Source of the DNA: a virus
Direction: 5' to 3' (one strand)
Length of the DNA: 5,947 nucleotides
Virus record (IMG/VR): IMGVR_UViG_3300025809_000007
Made by a program: the position numbers and the translations under genes. Below the pieces are notes generated by a model. That model was not told the DNA's origin, did no database searches, and worked only from the letters and a program-made list of their open reading frames with translations. The stretch's first letter is position 1. The number at the start of each line of letters is the position of its first letter. This document shows, one piece after another, positions 563 to 5,947 of this stretch.

Positions 563-2224
563 TTACTTCACAATTCGTGCTTGTTGCACTTGATCAGTAA
601 TGTGTTCGTAATCGCTGTCATCTCCATCGCCCTCTGTTAGAGGTGCTCCGAATTGTGTATTTCCAACGATATTAATGTCGCTTAGTAAGCTTATTTCAAA
701 ACTATCACCTAATTGATCTGCAAACGGTTTTTTATGAAGACCTTGGCATAAATACCAAGTTTCATTTAAAGTCGGGTTAAGCGTTTCTACGCTCCATATT
801 CGACTTCTGTCTTCTGTGTAAGCATCGTTTGCAGGTCGGTAAAATTTTCCGCCAACATTTGCTGTGTCGCGCTTCCATTGTGAATTCATTGGTGCGTACC
901 CAAATGTTGCATCAGGCGTTGCGTGTTCGATATCAATTTCGTTGTTTTTGATCACACGGATTTGCTCTGGATCAAGCAAATCAGGTAACGCGTTCGGTAA
1001 TTCGTCAGGGTCTGACATATGTAAAAAATGATCTTTTTTACGTTCGAATAACCGTTCTGGCATTATAGATGCACATATCAATAATGTACCACCGCAATTC
1101 ATTTGTGGTAATCTGATATTTAAATCAACTGTGGCTGAACCCACTGTTGCTGATTTATCTAAATTTGCGCCATCTGTTGCATATCGCTGATTATAACTAA
1201 TCATTGCTCTTTGTTTTGCCAATAGTATTGGCTGTTGCATAGCGGTTTCTGGCATTCTGATACCTGACATTAACATGTCAATAATTTCGTCGTCCAGTCC
1301 GTTATATTTTTCGCGTATTTTTGCAAATCCTGCTGTTTTTCTTGCTAACTCAATATCAGCAAGTGACATTGTTGCGTTTCCGCCTGTTGTTAGCTCTGCA
1401 TATATTTCGTCAAATAGATACATATCGCCCTGATCTATAATCTCAGCGCCAGACATTGCAGGTGAATACCCTAATGTATCTGTTGTTGTATCATTTGATG
1501 ATGCAGTTCCCGTAATATGATCACGTGAATATTTTGGTGCTTTAACTGGTGCTTGAAATGTCAAACCTTGTAATGACACCTCGCCATCAATTAAAGAGCT
1601 GTCAAAATCGGGAACGATATTTTCCATGCTTGTATTTAGCCAAAATGCTTCTGCTAAAGTATGGTCAAATTGATTTCGTAAGGGCAATGATGGTGATCTT
1701 GCCTTACGCATATGGTTTACAACTTGGTTATAACTTTGAACTAATGTGTTATTTAATTTATCACCTTTAAAGTGAATCCCCATTGTTTGATAAAATTGTC
1801 CGCGACCGTGTTGTGGTAATGTATCCCACGAAGAAGGAGTACCAACGGTAACAGCTTGAGTAGATGTATTTAAATATTTATTTGTTTCAAAAAATGGAAT
1901 TACGCTTCCTGCAGTTCCAACCTTTTTTTGATATGATTTGTTGAATTCATGTAATGATCCACCAAATTGTTCATGTGCCAAATGTGGTACAAAATGGGCA
2001 TAGACTGTTACAGCTATTCCGTTTTGCAACATTTCGGCAGTTTCTTCCATGGCTATATTTACACGTACACGGCCGTTTTTAATGCCGTCTTCTCTGTGTA
2101 GCCATTCTGATTTTAATGGTAAAAATTTACCTGCATCTGCTGATGTCAGCAGACGTCCTTTTACGTTTCGTACCGTTTTAGGTATCGAAATCGGTGCGTT
2201 AGGTATTAGTTCGGTTGCTCTCAT
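563..2224 (-). CDS. Microviridae major capsid protein (VP1 / protein F family), 553 aa
   Basis: It is the longest ORF, with AGGAG (2235-2231) 6 nt upstream of the ATG at 2224. Its size and overall sequence character (N-terminus MRATELIPNAPISIPKTVRNVKGRLLTS..., then ...VTVYAHFVPHLAHEQF...) look like microvirus F/VP1 capsid proteins. The neighbouring pilot and Rep genes fit this call. Confidence 0.93.
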   Translation of the reverse strand: MRATELIPNAPISIPKTVRNVKGRLLTSADAGKFLPLKSEWLHREDGIKNGRVRVNIAMEETAEMLQNGIAVTVYAHFVPHLAHEQFGGSLHEFNKSYQKKVGTAGSVIPFFETNKYLNTSTQAVTVGTPSSWDTLPQHGRGQFYQTMGIHFKGDKLNNTLVQSYNQVVNHMRKARSPSLPLRNQFDHTLAEAFWLNTSMENIVPDFDSSLIDGEVSLQGLTFQAPVKAPKYSRDHITGTASSNDTTTDTLGYSPAMSGAEIIDQGDMYLFDEIYAELTTGGNATMSLADIELARKTAGFAKIREKYNGLDDEIIDMLMSGIRMPETAMQQPILLAKQRAMISYNQRYATDGANLDKSATVGSATVDLNIRLPQMNCGGTLLICASIMPERLFERKKDHFLHMSDPDELPNALPDLLDPEQIRVIKNNEIDIEHATPDATFGYAPMNSQWKRDTANVGGKFYRPANDAYTEDRSRIWSVETLNPTLNETWYLCQGLHKKPFADQLGDSFEISLLSDINIVGNTQFGAPLTEGDGDDSDYEHITDQVQQARIVK

Positions 2225-2282: not shown

Positions 2283-3320
2283 TCAATAATCGCTTCTTAT
2301 AAAGCCATTAATTTCGTCTTGTATTTTACGTGCATTTGTAGTTAATCCACGTATTGATTGATTAAAGAAACCAGTAACATTTTTCATAAATGGTACTCGT
2401 GCGTTTTTTGCTTTGTCTGATAATACAGGGGGTGACTTAACTTTATCTTTAAAAAAGTTAGTTGCGTCATCAGCTAAATTATAAGCTGTTGTATATGCAG
2501 TTGAATAGGGCATGCCTAATTCATTTGAAATAGATAAGAAGGCATCTAAAAAACCATTTCCTGTTTTTTGTTTTACATTTGATGCAGCATTAATACCGTC
2601 TTGTATTACACTATCTGCAATATCTAAATGTGATGTTAAAATAACATCTGCCCAATTATCTCCAAACAAATCTTCCAATTCTTGTGCAGTTAAAGGTGTA
2701 TTGGGTAAAATACGCAAACGTTCAGCTACGGCTTTATTCATTTGTCGTGTATTTTTTCCAATTTGTATGGGTATTGTGTCGCCATATCCTGCATATGGAT
2801 CGTCATCGATACCCATAAGTTGATAGGCTTTTGAGTTTGTCATGATTTCCAAATCTCGTGCTTTTTGTTGATATGCGCCGTCCGTGTAATTTGTAATTCC
2901 ATTACCTAAAGCGCTATAGAAATTAGCACTTGATAATCCGCCTGCATATCCTCTTTGAAACCCTTGACCGCCCGTTGCCCTTAAAGCTGTCAAAGGGTTG
3001 AATCCTGCTCTCTCTGCTTCGTTTCGCAGTTTAACAAGATCTGTTTGTTGCGCATTGTGATGCGCTTTTGTTGCTTTATGATTTCCGTAGGCTTGTAATG
3101 CCCCAGAAATTACAGCTGATGTTCCTCCTCTGGACAATGAATTTTTTAATGTTCCAGAGAATATACCTTGTTTTGCAGTTCCACCTGATGGGTGGCCTGA
3201 TCTATTATTTGTGTATAATGTAGTCTGCGCGCCGCGACCAATAGCGCCGCCGACTTGCCTACCTACTGGGCCGCCATAATAACCGCCAACAGTTTCGCCT
3301 AAGTCTTCCCAAAAACCCAT
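2283..3320 (-). CDS. VP2-like DNA pilot / minor capsid protein, 345 aa
   Basis: The N-terminal third is Gly-rich (MGFWEDLGETVGGYYGGPVGRQVGGAIGRG...). It is followed by ...LVKLRNEAERAGFNPLTALRATGG..., which resembles the conserved AG(L/F)NP segment of gokushovirus-type VP2 proteins. GGGAG (3333-3329) sits 8 nt upstream of the ATG at 3320. The gene is adjacent to the major capsid gene. Confidence 0.82.
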   Translation of the reverse strand: MGFWEDLGETVGGYYGGPVGRQVGGAIGRGAQTTLYTNNRSGHPSGGTAKQGIFSGTLKNSLSRGGTSAVISGALQAYGNHKATKAHHNAQQTDLVKLRNEAERAGFNPLTALRATGGQGFQRGYAGGLSSANFYSALGNGITNYTDGAYQQKARDLEIMTNSKAYQLMGIDDDPYAGYGDTIPIQIGKNTRQMNKAVAERLRILPNTPLTAQELEDLFGDNWADVILTSHLDIADSVIQDGINAASNVKQKTGNGFLDAFLSISNELGMPYSTAYTTAYNLADDATNFFKDKVKSPPVLSDKAKNARVPFMKNVTGFFNQSIRGLTTNARKIQDEINGFIRSDY

Positions 3321-3416
3321 TTATAATACTCCCGAATTTATCAACGTGTCAGAGAATAGGGCAATACCCATAACTATTCCTGCTACTGTTGCGATAATAA
3401 TGTCTTTTAATTTCAT
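3321..3416 (-). CDS. Small hydrophobic protein, 31 aa, one predicted transmembrane helix
   Basis: Hand translation gives MKLKDIIIATVAGIVMGIALFSDTLINSGVL*. A strong SD, GGAGGTGGA (3429-3421), precedes the ATG at 3416. That ATG overlaps the upstream ORF's TGA (ATGA, 3416-3413). Its TAA (3323-3321) directly abuts the VP2 ATG (3320). It is too short for the ORF track. Confidence 0.55.
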   Translation of the reverse strand: MKLKDIIIATVAGIVMGIALFSDTLINSGVL

Positions 3417-3592
3417 TTGATCCACCTCCGTGTTATGAGGTCGATTGATACGCCCGCAAGAGCGGTAAATCCCAAAACGATACTATCTGTAGTACCGACT
3501 GCAATTCCTGCTCCAGCTAAGCTAGATCCCAAAATTGTTCCCATACGGGAAATTATGGGTTTAAGAATTTGTTTAATTAGTAGAATTTGCAA
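3413..3592 (-). CDS. Small membrane protein, 59 aa from a TTG start (43 aa if the ATG at 3544 is used); probably two hydrophobic segments and a basic C-terminus
   Basis: Hand translation gives (M)QILLIKQILKPIISRMGTILGSSLAGAGIAVGTTDSIVLGFTALAGVSIDLITRRWIK*. AAGGAG (3604-3599) lies 6 nt upstream of the TTG at 3592, and an in-frame stop sits just upstream at 3598-3596. The stop overlaps the next ORF's start (ATGA). It contains a Gly/Ala-rich small-residue stretch (GSSLAGAGIAVG). Confidence 0.5.
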   Translation of the reverse strand: MQILLIKQILKPIISRMGTILGSSLAGAGIAVGTTDSIVLGFTALAGVSIDLITRRWIK

Positions 3593-3600
3593 TTTTTACT

Positions 3601-3617
3601 CCTTCTTTATTAGAAGG
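3601..3617 (-). promoter_or_regulatory. Small hairpin overlapping the SD of the 59-aa ORF
   Basis: ccttct (3601-3606) is the reverse complement of agaagg (3612-3617), with a 5-nt loop. On the mRNA this reads CCUUCUaauaaAGAAGGAG, so four of the six SD bases (AAGGAG) sit in the 3' arm. Confidence 0.35.
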
Positions 3618-3789
3618 GGCAAAGTGTCCAATGGCCGATAATATATATTATGTTGCATTGTGAGACTCTGTTTTGACCCCTTGTTGATAACTGATGTTAT
3701 TTATTTGTTTTTGTCAATAGCTTATTTTTATTTTTGTATCTTTTTTATACTTTAAGCACCCTACCCGTCGCTTCGCTAGGGAAGGGCAC

Positions 3790-4095
3790 TTAACACCAAG
3801 GTATATATACGCCGCCGCCGCCGCGGCCTTTGCGTTTGTTATCACGTGGTTTATCCACACATCGTACACGCAAGGGTTTTTGCCTTGAAGATGGGTCATC
3901 TGTGTTTTTCCTTTGGCGTTCGCCAGATTGTGTGGCATTTGAAGAACGTTGTGGCAACGTTATCGGCGCAACTAGTATTTTGCTTGTTCTTAAAATGGTA
4001 TTTTTGCCCAAGGTACCTCTTGGGCTGTTTTTCGTGATTTTATTTGTGTACCTTGTTTTATTGTTTTTACGACCTCTGGTCTTTGCTCTTGCCAT
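3790..4095 (-). CDS. Highly basic 101-aa protein overlapping the Rep 3' end out of frame; candidate ssDNA-binding/packaging protein (J / VP5-like role)
   Basis: GAGGA (4106-4102) lies 6 nt upstream of the ATG at 4095. The protein, MARAKTRGRKNNKTRYTNKITKNSPRG...KPRDNKRKGRGGGGVYIPWC, has about 27 K+R against 5 D+E. It overlaps Rep for 106 nt, then covers about 200 nt that would otherwise be non-coding. A basic alternate-frame ORF could arise by chance in A-rich coding sequence. Confidence 0.5.
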   Translation of the reverse strand: MARAKTRGRKNNKTRYTNKITKNSPRGTLGKNTILRTSKILVAPITLPQRSSNATQSGERQRKNTDDPSSRQKPLRVRCVDKPRDNKRKGRGGGGVYIPWC

Positions 4096-5039
4096 ATTTG
4101 ATCCTCAGTTATTACTTTTATGTGGTCATCATAATCATTTTCCCAATAATATATTGGGATATCGTCATAGGTGCCTTCGACTAAATACATGCTTTCATTT
4201 AGTCCTTTTCCTGTTTGTTCTTGCCATTCTTCGACATACTTTACAGGTCTGTAATGTAGTCGTTTTTCTAATTCATCATCGGTGTAGTCTATATGGGTTT
4301 TTTTATCGATATATTCGTCAATATATTCGGAATTCCATTTGTAATCATGGGTTTGATCCCATTGTTCCATGAATTCGTCTAAAAAGTTTTCTCTTGTTTT
4401 TCCCATCATATAGAACTTTTTTTCGTTGTTTTGATTATCTTTTATGTTTTTGATTTTGTAATATGGATTTTGCGGGGCTAATCCATTTTGTACGTATAGT
4501 TTGGCTAATTCTTTAAAGAATTGGTGTCCGATTGGTGGTTTTTTTGACATACTAAAGCATTTTTCGCTTTGTATTTGGTCTTGATCTTTTAATATGTACT
4601 TAAGTGCATATCTAAAACCCTTCCAATCTGGTTGTTGAAAATAGACGAGGCCATTTTTCCAAAACTTCCAACGTATCCGTTTATCTTGTTCCACGTCAGG
4701 ATATGCGCCGGTGAAGAATAACAGGCAGTGAAAGTGGCTTCTCCCCTTTTTTGACCCGTATTCTCCAACGACACAATATCTGACTTTATATTTTCGACGT
4801 AGCCTTTTCATAAAGTCTTGAACGTCTTTGTAAACTAACGCTATCGTGTGTACTTCCTCTTTTCTCTCCGCCATTATTTTGTCGTCGTAGGTTAGTGTTA
4901 CTGAGTACGTTTTCGTTGAAAACATACTCTCAGCAGTGCATCGCGCTGTCCAGTCATTGACTTTCGTTGCTCTACACTGCCAGCATTGTGAACAACCCAC
5001 CTGAATACCGCTATCTAATGTTGAAGGGTTCAAGCACAT
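3990..5039 (-). CDS. Rolling-circle replication initiator, HUH endonuclease (Microviridae VP4 / protein A family), 349 aa
   Basis: All three RCR motifs are present. Motif I is SVTLTY (aa 46-51, nt 4904-4887). Motif II (HUH) is HFHCLLF (aa 102-108; H codons checked at 4736-4734 and 4730-4728). Motif III is YALKYILK with two tyrosines three residues apart (Y144 at 4610-4608, Y148 at 4598-4596), as in phiX174 protein A. The N-terminus has a Cys cluster: MC-x13-C-x2-C-x2-C. Confidence 0.95.
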   Translation of the reverse strand: MCLNPSTLDSGIQVGCSQCWQCRATKVNDWTARCTAESMFSTKTYSVTLTYDDKIMAERKEEVHTIALVYKDVQDFMKRLRRKYKVRYCVVGEYGSKKGRSHFHCLLFFTGAYPDVEQDKRIRWKFWKNGLVYFQQPDWKGFRYALKYILKDQDQIQSEKCFSMSKKPPIGHQFFKELAKLYVQNGLAPQNPYYKIKNIKDNQNNEKKFYMMGKTRENFLDEFMEQWDQTHDYKWNSEYIDEYIDKKTHIDYTDDELEKRLHYRPVKYVEEWQEQTGKGLNESMYLVEGTYDDIPIYYWENDYDDHIKVITEDQIWQEQRPEVVKTIKQGTQIKSRKTAQEVPWAKIPF

Positions 5040-5100
5040 ATCGATTTCCGGTGGTTTGTGTCACTAATGCATATATCTAACAAGTAGTATGGTTTTGCTC

Positions 5101-5145
5101 GACGGGAACGAACTCCAATACTTGGAGTTTCCGTTCGTTCCCGTC
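5101..5145 (-). other. Long interrupted stem-loop between the peptidase stop and the Rep start
   Basis: gacgggaacgaac (5101-5113) is the exact reverse complement of gttcgttcccgtc (5133-5145), giving 13 bp. An inner helix pairs tccaa (5114-5118) with ttgga (5122-5126) around a tac loop. An alternative register pairs 10 bp plus 8 bp. Either way about 18 bp pair within 45 nt. Confidence 0.7.
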
Positions 5146-5163
5146 TGAGTTTGTTCAAACTCA
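5146..5163 (-). other. Short hairpin enclosing the peptidase stop codon
   Basis: tgagttt (5146-5152) pairs with aaactca (5157-5163) around a gttc loop. It directly abuts the long hairpin. Confidence 0.4.
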
Positions 5164-5766
5164 TTTTTTTGCCCATAAGGTTTTTAAGCGTGCTTGAGTT
5201 TCAAGTTGCTTTTTTGTTAATACCCTTATTTGTGGCGCGCATATTTGGCGCCAATTTTTTAGTTCCCAGTGTGCAGGATCCCAAAAATCCCAATCATCAC
5301 CGCTGATTAGTTTTACATTGCATTTTCGCGCACATTCTTTCTGAATGGCGATCATGCAATCCCATTGCTTTTTTGACAAATTCCAACAATTTTTTGCGTG
5401 AATTATATCAATTGCGCAACCGTATTGGTGCGCGCTTTGTCCAGGCACAGCCTTTGACACGCCTTTGTCATACAGTTCTTGTTGTCGCGCGTGTGAGCGC
5501 TTCAGTTCGAAGGCTCGAACTGGTATATCACGCAATTTCATTGCTTTATGCACAGACTTCCAAAATTTTATTATATCGGGGTGTACACCCTCAAAATTTA
5601 ATGTGGTGTGCATTTGTTTATATTTGAACTGTTTCATTGCCTCTGGGTCGGCAAGCGACCTCATGGCTTCTATATGATCCTTATGTACCAATGGTTCCTC
5701 ACGATTGAAATAATGGATACGGTCTAAAAACCGTATCCATCTAAACCACTTATTCGGTGGTTTCAT
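5161..5766 (-). CDS. Peptidase M15-family (LAS-type zinc D,D- or L-Ala-D-Glu peptidase), endolysin-like cell-wall hydrolase, 201 aa
   Basis: The layout is that of M15 phage peptidases such as the T5 endolysin. It reads ...GVHPDIIKFWKSVHKAMKLRDIPVRAFELKRSHARQQELYDKGVSKAVPGQSAHQYGCAIDI...ISGDDWDFWDPAHWE.... This gives the Zn-ligand pattern H-x6-D (H113 at 5430-5428, D120 at 5409-5407, both codons checked) plus D-x2-H-x-E (D163, H166, E168). GAGGAAG (5782-5776) lies 9 nt upstream of the ATG at 5766. I see no N-terminal signal peptide. Confidence 0.85.
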   Translation of the reverse strand: MKPPNKWFRWIRFLDRIHYFNREEPLVHKDHIEAMRSLADPEAMKQFKYKQMHTTLNFEGVHPDIIKFWKSVHKAMKLRDIPVRAFELKRSHARQQELYDKGVSKAVPGQSAHQYGCAIDIIHAKNCWNLSKKQWDCMIAIQKECARKCNVKLISGDDWDFWDPAHWELKNWRQICAPQIRVLTKKQLETQARLKTLWAKK

Positions 5767-5947
5767 CGTTTTTTGCTTCCTCTTTTAGTAAGCTTTGTTC
5801 CTTGAGCGGTGGTATGTCTACACCGTCAACGTGATCAGCTAAATCATATCTATTGATTTCTTTTCGCAATTCAGCACGTTCAAGTCGCAATTCAGCTCTT
5901 TCCGCGTTTAACTCACGTTCACGACGTTGTTCATTAATCTGAACATA
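5750..5947 (-). CDS. C-terminal part of the wrap-around 189-aa hypothetical protein (same gene as 1-499; 5821-5947 duplicates 1-127)
   Basis: The reading frame from 127/5947 continues through 5820: ...DHVDGVDIPPLKEQSLLKEEAKNDETTE*. The stop is TAA at 5752-5750, which overlaps the peptidase start by 17 nt. Confidence 0.7.
   Translation of the reverse strand, partial: YVQINEQRRERELNAERAELRLERAELRKEINRYDLADHVDGVDIPPLKEQSLLKEEAKNDETTE
5821..5947. repeat. Terminal direct repeat, copy 2; exact duplicate of 1-127
   Basis: Same 127-nt string as 1-127. It implies a circular unit of 5,820 nt. Confidence 0.95.

Follow-up and report, generated by a model that had tools for sequence, protein, structure and literature searches.

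IMG/VR virus record IMGVR_UViG_3300025809_000007 carries, directly upstream of the gene for a VP2-like DNA pilot protein, two small overlapping open reading frames (ORFs) for hydrophobic proteins, here called ORF-A and ORF-B, which we analyzed as possible holin-type partners of a peptidase encoded in the same genome. The window, as we call the whole stretch of DNA that was analyzed, comprises 5,947 bases, and the identity of positions 1-127 with positions 5821-5947 indicates that the microvirus genome is circular, 5,820 nt long and given with a terminal redundancy of 127 nt. As every gene of the window is located on the minus strand, the window is the complement of the coding (and presumably packaged) strand. 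The closest annotated genomes are those of the Roseobacter phages CRPss-151 to -155, with a capsid protein of about 60% identity and the same gene order. This group has been placed in the proposed subfamily Occultatumvirinae, which is equivalent to 'Family 7' (PMC11499846), and the window is the genome of a marine Occultatumvirinae microvirus. Its VP2 gene has homologues in the CRPss roseophages, where they take the VP2 position; they are labeled 'hypothetical protein' in the matched records and 'DNA pilot protein' in CRPss-154, and the same pilot gene is called VP2 in PMC11499846. The features of the chained set are as follows:

3601-3617, minus strand: hairpin CCTTCT-AATAA-AGAAGG with 6 bp, its 3' arm overlapping the ORF-A Shine-Dalgarno sequence
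3604-3599, minus strand: ORF-A Shine-Dalgarno sequence AAGGAG, followed by the 6-nt spacer TAAAAA (3598-3593) and the TTG start (3592-3590)
3592..3413, minus strand: ORF-A, 59 amino acids (aa), TTG start
3429-3421, minus strand: ORF-B Shine-Dalgarno sequence GGAGGTGGA, followed by TCAA and the ATG start (3416-3414)
3416..3321, minus strand: ORF-B, 31 aa, single-pass membrane protein
3320..2283, minus strand: VP2-like DNA pilot protein gene, third gene of the chained set

The TGA stop of ORF-A occupies 3415-3413, and the tetranucleotide ATGA at 3416-3413 combines this stop with the start of ORF-B, whose Shine-Dalgarno sequence GGAGGTGGA sits inside the last codons of ORF-A (TRRWIK). At the other end, the TAA stop of ORF-B (3323-3321) abuts the ATG of VP2 (3320-3318), which is preceded by GGGAG 8 nt upstream. 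The Shine-Dalgarno sequence of ORF-A is retained as (A)GAAGGAG in nearly all relatives, and GGAGG or GGAGA upstream of ORF-B is conserved in 39 of 39 distinct sequences. The signals, the spacer, the overlap and the abutment had been described in the original prediction together with the coordinates and both translations, and all of them proved to be correct when the minus strand was read again.

The hairpin at 3601-3617 is kept in all relatives listed, in one of them with a compensatory double change (CCTTCA...TGAAGG). As its 3' arm overlaps the Shine-Dalgarno sequence, translation of ORF-A may be damped, and the hairpin in combination with the TTG start suggests a deliberately low translation of ORF-A. 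A dual-start motif was considered for both genes and judged unlikely. In ORF-A the internal Met17 of the window is replaced by Leu, Cys or Ile in relatives, which means that this internal ATG is not a conserved start, and the GTG/ATG upstream of ORF-B (MDQM...) is located only 1-3 nt from the Shine-Dalgarno sequence and changes together with a synonymous Arg codon in ORF-A.

To place both genes in a wider context, about 150 related loci were retrieved from IMG/VR and GenBank. The identical layout of 59 and 31 aa is present in 46 copies in 39 related loci, which gave 39 distinct 272-nt sequences of 65-100% identity, and no stop or frameshift interrupts ORF-A or ORF-B in any of these 39 sequences. 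The TTG start of ORF-A is kept in 38 of them and the ATGA overlap in all 39. Counted by codon position 1/2/3, the variable sites amount to 31/9/51 of 57 in ORF-A and to 15/4/24 of 30 in ORF-B, and in pairwise comparison with relatives the ratio of nonsynonymous to synonymous substitution rates (dN/dS) ranges over 0.08-0.16 in ORF-A and 0-0.23 in ORF-B. The original prediction had proposed to look for the same frames at the same position in related genomes and for purifying selection, and both were found. This confirms ORF-A and ORF-B as real, translationally chained small membrane-protein genes under purifying selection. One could still argue that the frames are open by chance, in an intergenic leader rich in A+T, and that the conservation belongs to a DNA or RNA element, since nucleotide conservation is unusually high in parts of the ORF-A 3' half and of the ORF-B 5' half (with a dS of 0.23-0.74 for ORF-B) and structured DNA or RNA lies directly upstream. 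We regard this explanation as effectively refuted by the unbroken frames, by the third codon positions being the most variable ones and by dN/dS values of about 0.1-0.2, as well as by homologues which are only 15-40% identical and still keep the same length, motifs and position.

The annotation of the two genes in deposited genomes is uneven. CRPss-153 has a 61-aa homologue of ORF-A, annotated as hypothetical, followed at 1617-1712 by a 31-aa homologue of ORF-B without annotation, which again forms an ATGA overlap with gene 03 and a TAATG junction into the pilot gene; CRPss-151 contains an unannotated 31-aa homologue of ORF-B at the same position. In CRPss-251 both homologues are annotated (64 and 29 aa), the ORF-B homologue as hypothetical. 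The statement that the two genes are unannotated thus holds for ORF-B in CRPss-153 and CRPss-151, but not for the ORF-A homologue and not for ORF-B in CRPss-251. Rhizobium phages have a 67-88-aa homologue of ORF-A that is coupled directly to VP2, with no ORF-B.

The hydropathy of both ORFs supports the expectation that the products are small membrane proteins. In Kyte-Doolittle (KD) analysis, ORF-A starts with an amphipathic N-terminal segment (residues 1-16), followed by a Gly/Ala/Ser-rich, weakly hydrophobic stretch (residues 17-33, mean KD 1.40) and a clear hydrophobic helix (residues 37-53, mean KD 1.95), which contains Asp51, and the protein ends with the basic sequence RRWIK. AlphaFold2 predicted a helical hairpin with helices at residues ~3-27 and 32-58 of ORF-A and a mean predicted local distance difference test score (pLDDT) of 86; the query consisted of the 58 residues without the start residue, so that the helices are 2-26 and 31-57 in query numbering. 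The turn is located at an invariant Gly (Gly28 of the query, Gly29 of ORF-A). A Foldseek search of this model against the PDB returned generic helical hairpins only, all with E > 2. With its 59 aa, its hydropathy and the predicted hairpin, ORF-A has the traits of a holin as far as small size, transmembrane (TM) helices and a charged hydrophilic C-terminus are concerned.

ORF-B contains a single strongly hydrophobic segment (residues 6-22, mean KD 2.50). A start-overlapping TM ORF of 28-34 aa is present in the position of ORF-B in 81 of the 96 loci with ORF-A and VP2, and the 41 distinct sequences share the motif G..(M/A)G.....AL(F/Y)G(P/D); a Pfam search with 18 ORF-B variants gave no match. 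We also considered that ORF-B might derive from the N-terminal TM segment of VP2 by separation from that gene, which seems unlikely, as the Gly-rich N-terminus of VP2 is kept with or without ORF-B and the motifs differ. Some relatives vary in the arrangement: in six loci (L122, L128, L123, L125, L126 and L135) 100-300 nt separate ORF-A from the ORF-B-like gene, which leaves room for an extra small gene, and in the ORF-B of L111 the N-terminal half is duplicated internally in tandem (MWIKEIISGLSFGV repeated).

Profile searches with ORF-A gave 88 matches at first; among 1.84 billion proteins, the matches at E<=1e-3 then amounted to 580 clusters (representatives at 50% identity), with matches at E ~1e-24. 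All members of this family are small (57-153 aa among the 150 matches listed) and follow the consensus M..LL.E...P..RR.GT..A..L.G.GV...Q...I..G..AL..V..DL..S...R, in which Pro11 is invariant and Arg15, Gly17, Leu24, Gly28 and Asp50 are nearly invariant. They are encoded on 5-6-kb contigs or in Rhizobium microvirus prophages, always by the gene before VP2. We considered the Rhizobium genomic copies as parts of tailed-phage lysis cassettes and discarded this, as all copies examined are microvirus prophages. When a family member was compared by tblastn with 50,697 phage records, only microviruses and noise came up, so that at the sensitivity of BLAST no homologue in tailed phages is seen. ORF-A and ORF-B themselves gave no match in Pfam, PHROGs or NCBIfam, and a PHROGs scan of 147 family members revealed nothing recurrent.

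A Pfam scan of the family members was more informative. At E<=0.01, 24 of the 147 members match PF23987 ('Phage_holin_10, Pam3 gp28 family', best E-value 3.3e-6), and no other Pfam family recurs among the 147. One prophage copy (P0083) scores 28.6 bits, above the 27-bit gathering cut-off of PF23987, and P0057 and P0051 reach 26.8 and 25.6 bits; some Rhizobium prophage copies of ORF-A also carry the automatic label 'Pam3-gp28 family putative phage holin'. The members of PF23987 are putative holins of tailed phages and Bosea prophages. Pam3 gp28 (cyanomyophage Pam3, ON014755), an 88-aa protein with 49.6 bits to PF23987, is encoded directly after gp27, a lytic enzyme with PG_binding_1 and Peptidase_M15_4, and an XhlA-like small protein comes next; two further PF23987 members, P0331 and P0300, are located on 28-47-kb phage contigs one or two genes past a PG_binding_1 enzyme. 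When the ORF-A family was aligned by hhalign to 22 relatives of Pam3 gp28 (A2 and A4 vs A7), the E-values were 1.8e-4 (probability 48%) and 1.3e-3 (19%), both times in the identical register, which aligns the conserved Arg, the Gly-rich stretch, the Gly turn, the second helix and the basic tail. In reciprocal cross-searches with hidden Markov models (HMMs), at least 10 bits were reached by 28 of 234 real sequences and by none of 234 reversed or shuffled ones, and the median was 5.5 bits for the real sequences vs 1.5 and 0.4 bits for the reversed and shuffled controls. Judged from these sequence comparisons, the ORF-A family is probably related to PF23987, weakly and at the family level. A BLASTP comparison of the peptidase of the window with Pam3 gp27 was not significant and gives no evidence for a joint acquisition of holin and lysin.

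The peptidase and the other genes of the window are arranged as follows:

5766..5161, minus strand: M15-family peptidase (VanY / Peptidase_M15_4), the proposed endolysin partner
5039..3990, minus strand: Rep
4095..3790, minus strand: very basic ORF overlapping Rep
2224..563, minus strand: major capsid gene
start at 499, minus strand: scaffold-like gene, which crosses the start of the window

The M15 peptidase is soluble and has no signal segment and no signal-anchor-release (SAR) segment. Its first 60 residues contain no hydrophobic segment (best 17-residue window KD -0.42), and none of 96 distinct relatives among the microvirus M15 peptidases has one (none reaches 1.6 in a 15-residue window), in agreement with the assumption of the original prediction that the enzyme lacks a signal peptide. 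These peptidases are therefore cytoplasmic and need an exit route, and a soluble endolysin partner without an export signal of its own is a further holin trait that is found for ORF-A.

ORF-A and the peptidase also tend to occur together. Among 82 near-complete genomes, 71 contain both, one contains ORF-A only, six contain the M15 gene only and four contain neither (Fisher p = 5.6e-4, a value that includes no phylogenetic correction and ignores shared ancestry). The sole genome with ORF-A only is a contig that ends before the position of the peptidase, so that 71 of the 72 carriers of ORF-A have the M15 gene. In five of the six genomes with the M15 gene only, the slot before VP2 is occupied by a different small protein of 42-45 aa with one TM segment, and the sixth is an incomplete contig. 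The genomes with neither gene are those of CRPss-154, of two Ciona-associated microviruses (L159 and L160) and of Ebor. In the first three of them ORF-A is absent and no hydrolase was found by the M15 model or Pfam, and the Rhodobacter microvirus Ebor has a different peptidoglycan hydrolase, which has been verified experimentally and degrades peptidoglycan in vitro (PMC11980548). Subgroups 6 and 7 of PMC11499846 also have no peptidase.

The slot ahead of VP2 is always occupied by a small envelope protein of an interchangeable kind, which can be the two-TM ORF-A, a one-TM protein like Ebor Gp1 or a lipobox ORF. The one-TM proteins form a second, unrelated family of 42-45 aa with a single TM segment and the motif ...P....(A/S)FC.G..., which includes Ebor Gp1 and occurs in microviruses with a hydrolase and without ORF-A:

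L018, 4915-5091
L021, 4646-4834
L137, 702-839
L141, 2221-2376
L142
L145
Ebor (L094), 67-204

In the Ciona microviruses, ORFs with a lipoprotein signal and a lipobox (LTGC) precede VP2 (L159 at ~4778-4882 and L160 at ~4888-5073; MRFLMLIITLTGC... and MRTLILTALLTGC...), and they are reminiscent of small lipoprotein lysis or exclusion proteins. Small hydrophobic proteins are easily missed by virion mass spectrometry. In Ebor virions, liquid chromatography-tandem mass spectrometry (LC-MS/MS) detected VP1, VP2 and the basic Gp10, and the small membrane protein encoded upstream of VP2 was not detected (PMC11980548).

The history of the two small genes differs from that of most of the genome. ORF-A is 85-93% and ORF-B 77-90% identical in genomes whose capsid (63-67%), Rep (52-55%), peptidase (49-64%) and VP2 (37-57%) are much more diverged, and synonymous divergence is lower in the cassette (dS 0.8-1.0) than in the other genes (dS from 1.0 to saturated). 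In L023 and L056, capsid and Rep are closer to the window (71-72%), yet ORF-A is 67% and ORF-B 38% identical; in L004 Rep is 97% and VP2 67% identical and the dS of ORF-A is 0.66; in genomes like L005 Rep is 54% and ORF-A 90% identical. The history of the cassette and VP2 is thus incongruent with the one seen for the major capsid protein (MCP), Rep and the peptidase, which indicates that the ORF-A/ORF-B/VP2 region is mosaic and swapped by recombination. The notion that the extreme identity reflects extreme constraint had to be tempered because of the low dS of the cassette and the incongruent phylogeny: part of the 87-93% identity is due to recombination, and recombination together with purifying selection accounts for the high identity of ORF-A and ORF-B. 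Several contigs of 8.7-12.2 kb (L012, L013/L030/L150, L006/L024/L151 and L057) contain two different microvirus genomes head to tail, whose capsids differ in their match to the window (66% and 58% in L012) and whose copies of ORF-A and ORF-B are nearly identical. These contigs may be assembly chimeras formed via the conserved cassette or real heterodimeric replicative forms.

We assume that ORF-A is a candidate holin-type protein which serves the signal-less M15 endolysin, with ORF-B as its co-translated single-pass partner; on the sequence evidence this appears to be the best explanation, and we consider it somewhat probable. According to this proposal, ORF-A would be made slowly because of its weak TTG start and a Shine-Dalgarno sequence partly buried in the small hairpin, and would go into the inner membrane in the form of a hairpin of two helices, the amphipathic N-terminal segment and the basic C-terminal tail remaining in the cytoplasm. 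It would then accumulate and oligomerize, probably via the Gly/Ala-rich faces and the conserved Arg15 and Asp50/51, and finally open the membrane so that the cytoplasmic M15 peptidase could reach the peptidoglycan. ORF-B would be a membrane partner supplied in a fixed ratio by translational coupling, most likely a second holin component or a timing factor, through which the lesion made by ORF-A would be modulated or completed.

Several observations weigh against the holin proposal. The first hydrophobic segment of ORF-A is short and weak (mean KD 1.40) and the hydrophobic arms of the predicted hairpin are short, which bears on the assumption of two membrane-spanning helices in an N-in/C-in topology. 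The ORF-A of the window itself has no match to PF23987 at E<=1 and stays below the gathering cut-off, and in the cross-search it scored 5.0 bits vs 6.5 bits for its own reverse; as it is indistinguishable from its reverse, its link to PF23987 is transitive and holds at the family level only. All hhalign probabilities are below 50%, and the holin role of Pam3 gp28 is an annotation by position for which no experiment was found in the literature searched. ORF-A is not located in a cassette beside the endolysin gene: it never adjoins the peptidase and is chained to VP2 in every genome examined, and in the window Rep on one side and the VP2, capsid and scaffold genes on the other lie between ORF-A and the peptidase. 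Six genomes have the peptidase and lack ORF-A, and the association of the two rests on perhaps two independent loss events. Furthermore, ORF-B has no relatives of known function and no link of this 31-aa protein to lysis was found, and no component that disrupts the outer membrane (spanin or disruptin) was identified. The holin-partner hypothesis of the original prediction has therefore gained from the family-level similarity to PF23987 and from the way in which ORF-A tracks the peptidase across genomes, while the missing match of ORF-A itself, its chaining to VP2 and the unlinked ORF-B leave it partly supported.

The main rival, which we regard as unlikely, is that ORF-A and ORF-B work together with VP2, either as accessory factors of DNA delivery (packaged in the virion or located in the inner membrane) or as anchors or chaperones of VP2 during assembly, with the stoichiometry set by the A-B-VP2 chain. 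This would be in line with the physical chaining of the three genes in the window, with a peptidase gene that is more than 1.3 kb away on either side, and with the fact that ORF-A or another small TM gene is always found directly upstream of VP2, not only in Occultatumvirinae but also in prophages of Rhizobium and in Ebor, a phage of the Tainavirinae. The ORF-A/ORF-B/VP2 block also evolves as a mosaic region of its own, as in L004 with VP2 at 67% and Rep at 97% identity. The VP2-linked role is harder to reconcile with the family-level similarity of ORF-A to a holin family of lysis cassettes, and with CRPss-154, L159 and L160, which keep VP2 and have neither the peptidase nor ORF-A. In addition, VP2 proteins have a Gly-rich N-terminal hydrophobic segment of their own, and the small membrane protein encoded ahead of VP2 was not detected in Ebor virions (PMC11980548), though Ebor Gp1 belongs to another family and such a protein is easily missed.

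The exchange of the cassette between lineages, incongruent with MCP and Rep, is typical of accessory or conflict genes, and the VP2 slot holds interchangeable small envelope proteins; both would also suit host-directed membrane proteins unrelated to the peptidase, such as factors of superinfection exclusion at the inner membrane or modulators of the host envelope, for which small phage membrane proteins are often employed. We consider this explanation rather improbable, because the near-universal presence of ORF-A (71 of 82 near-complete genomes) and the strong purifying selection argue for a core function, and the association with the peptidase and the similarity to a holin family point in the same direction. 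It is very improbable, in our opinion, that one of the two proteins acts as an endolysin-independent 'amurin' which, like phiX174 E, blocks a step of cell-wall precursor synthesis, and that the M15 enzyme serves another purpose. Single-gene lysis is classically a trait of microviruses (PMC3394797), and tiny, highly conserved proteins with TM segments would be well suited for binding a conserved host membrane enzyme. However, ORF-A and ORF-B stand alone and are not embedded in another gene, no complete genome has ORF-A without the peptidase, neither protein resembles protein E or other known amurins, and the hydrolase of a related microvirus degrades peptidoglycan in vitro.

According to the textbook view, microviruses lyse their hosts with one 'amurin' gene, phiX174 E being an example. 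Since 2012, many microviruses have been noted to encode muralytic M15 peptidases, and biochemical verification of one hydrolase of this kind followed in 2025. In the literature searched we found no holin proposed for any microvirus and no proposal of how a signal-less enzyme crosses the inner membrane in 5-6-kb phages. What appears to be new here is that a putative holin family has a distant and shorter relative in a single-stranded DNA (ssDNA) phage, at another genomic position and usually with a 31-aa partner. Going further, one may tentatively envisage a full holin-endolysin program in Occultatumvirinae, with the first holin described in an ssDNA phage: a two-part module of a 59-aa hairpin and a 31-aa single-pass protein, chained to the pilot gene and swapped by recombination, in which alternative lysis or envelope genes can generally be plugged into the VP2 slot (be it a two-TM holin, a protein similar to Ebor Gp1 or, where no lysin is recognizable, a small lipoprotein). 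We see this wider scenario as possible and give it somewhat less than an even chance. If it is true, the pair of 59 and 31 aa would be among the smallest lysis modules known. In any case, a conserved holin candidate makes the question of export directly testable in cultured Roseobacter and Rhizobium microviruses, and as these phages are abundant in the ocean, their mechanism of lysis bears on the mortality of marine bacteria. There is also a consequence for annotation, as most deposited genomes do not list the 31-aa gene, and 'hypothetical' is the label given to the 59-aa gene.

Some additional features of the window were observed outside the cassette. The basic ORF at 3790-4095 on the minus strand encodes 101 aa, overlaps the 3' end of Rep in another frame, has the C-terminus ...YIPWC and is kept in relatives with 28-97% identity. 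Its position and character match those of the virion protein Ebor Gp10, which makes it likely to be a DNA-binding, charge-neutralizing virion protein. Three intergenic structures are present: a long imperfect stem-loop upstream of ORF-A (3612-3680, RNA fold z = -2.8), an inverted repeat between the peptidase gene and Rep that pairs perfectly over 13 bp around a loop of 19 nt (5101-5145) and a G+C-rich 12-bp inverted repeat directly after the capsid gene (526-557). They could be an origin, a terminator or a packaging signal, and none of the three fits a simple intrinsic terminator on the coding strand.

In comparison with known systems, the E and K proteins of phiX174 are, like ORF-A and ORF-B, small membrane proteins of a microvirus, with E as the classic lysis protein of this group. 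The gene of E lies inside gene D in a different frame, and E works without an endolysin, whereas ORF-A and ORF-B are stand-alone genes in a genome that also contains an M15 lysin gene, and no sequence similarity of ORF-A or ORF-B to E or K was found. Ebor Gp1 (45 aa, putative membrane protein; PMC11980548) is likewise a small membrane protein in the slot ahead of VP2 of a microvirus with a peptidoglycan hydrolase, with Gp2 intervening in Ebor. It has one TM segment instead of two and belongs to the other family, with the ...FC.G motif, which is common to some tortoise, rat and IMG/VR microviruses; ORF-A differs from these proteins in length, motif and number of helices, and since the ORF-A HMMs gave no match to Ebor Gp1-like proteins, only the genomic position is common to both.

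Class II holins and pinholins (e.g., S68 of phage 21) are proteins of 59-70 aa with two helical hydrophobic segments and a charged C-terminal tail. ORF-A resembles them in its Gly/Ala/Ser-rich, weakly hydrophobic first segment, the second helix and the charged tail, and it may also have an N-in/C-in topology, as the positive-inside rule would suggest. Pinholins use SAR endolysins, unlike the M15 enzyme with neither a SAR nor a signal segment, and ORF-A has no dual-start motif and no detectable sequence similarity to pinholins. From PF23987, ORF-A is distinguished by its location upstream of the pilot gene and not beside the lysin, by its confinement to ssDNA microviruses and their prophages and, in most marine members, by the overlapping 31-aa partner that comes next; it also lacks the conserved C-terminal extension of ~35 residues (GLVASAAALPEV...) of the Pam3 family. 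What both families have in common is a small protein with a core of ~52 residues, in which the N-terminal helix carries a conserved Arg and leads into a hydrophobic stretch rich in Gly and Ala; the conserved Gly that comes next is succeeded by a turn of polar or acidic character and by another hydrophobic helix, and the tail is basic (RRK or RRW). Both are found in combination with a phage lysin of the M15 clan and an alphaproteobacterial and cyanobacterial host range.

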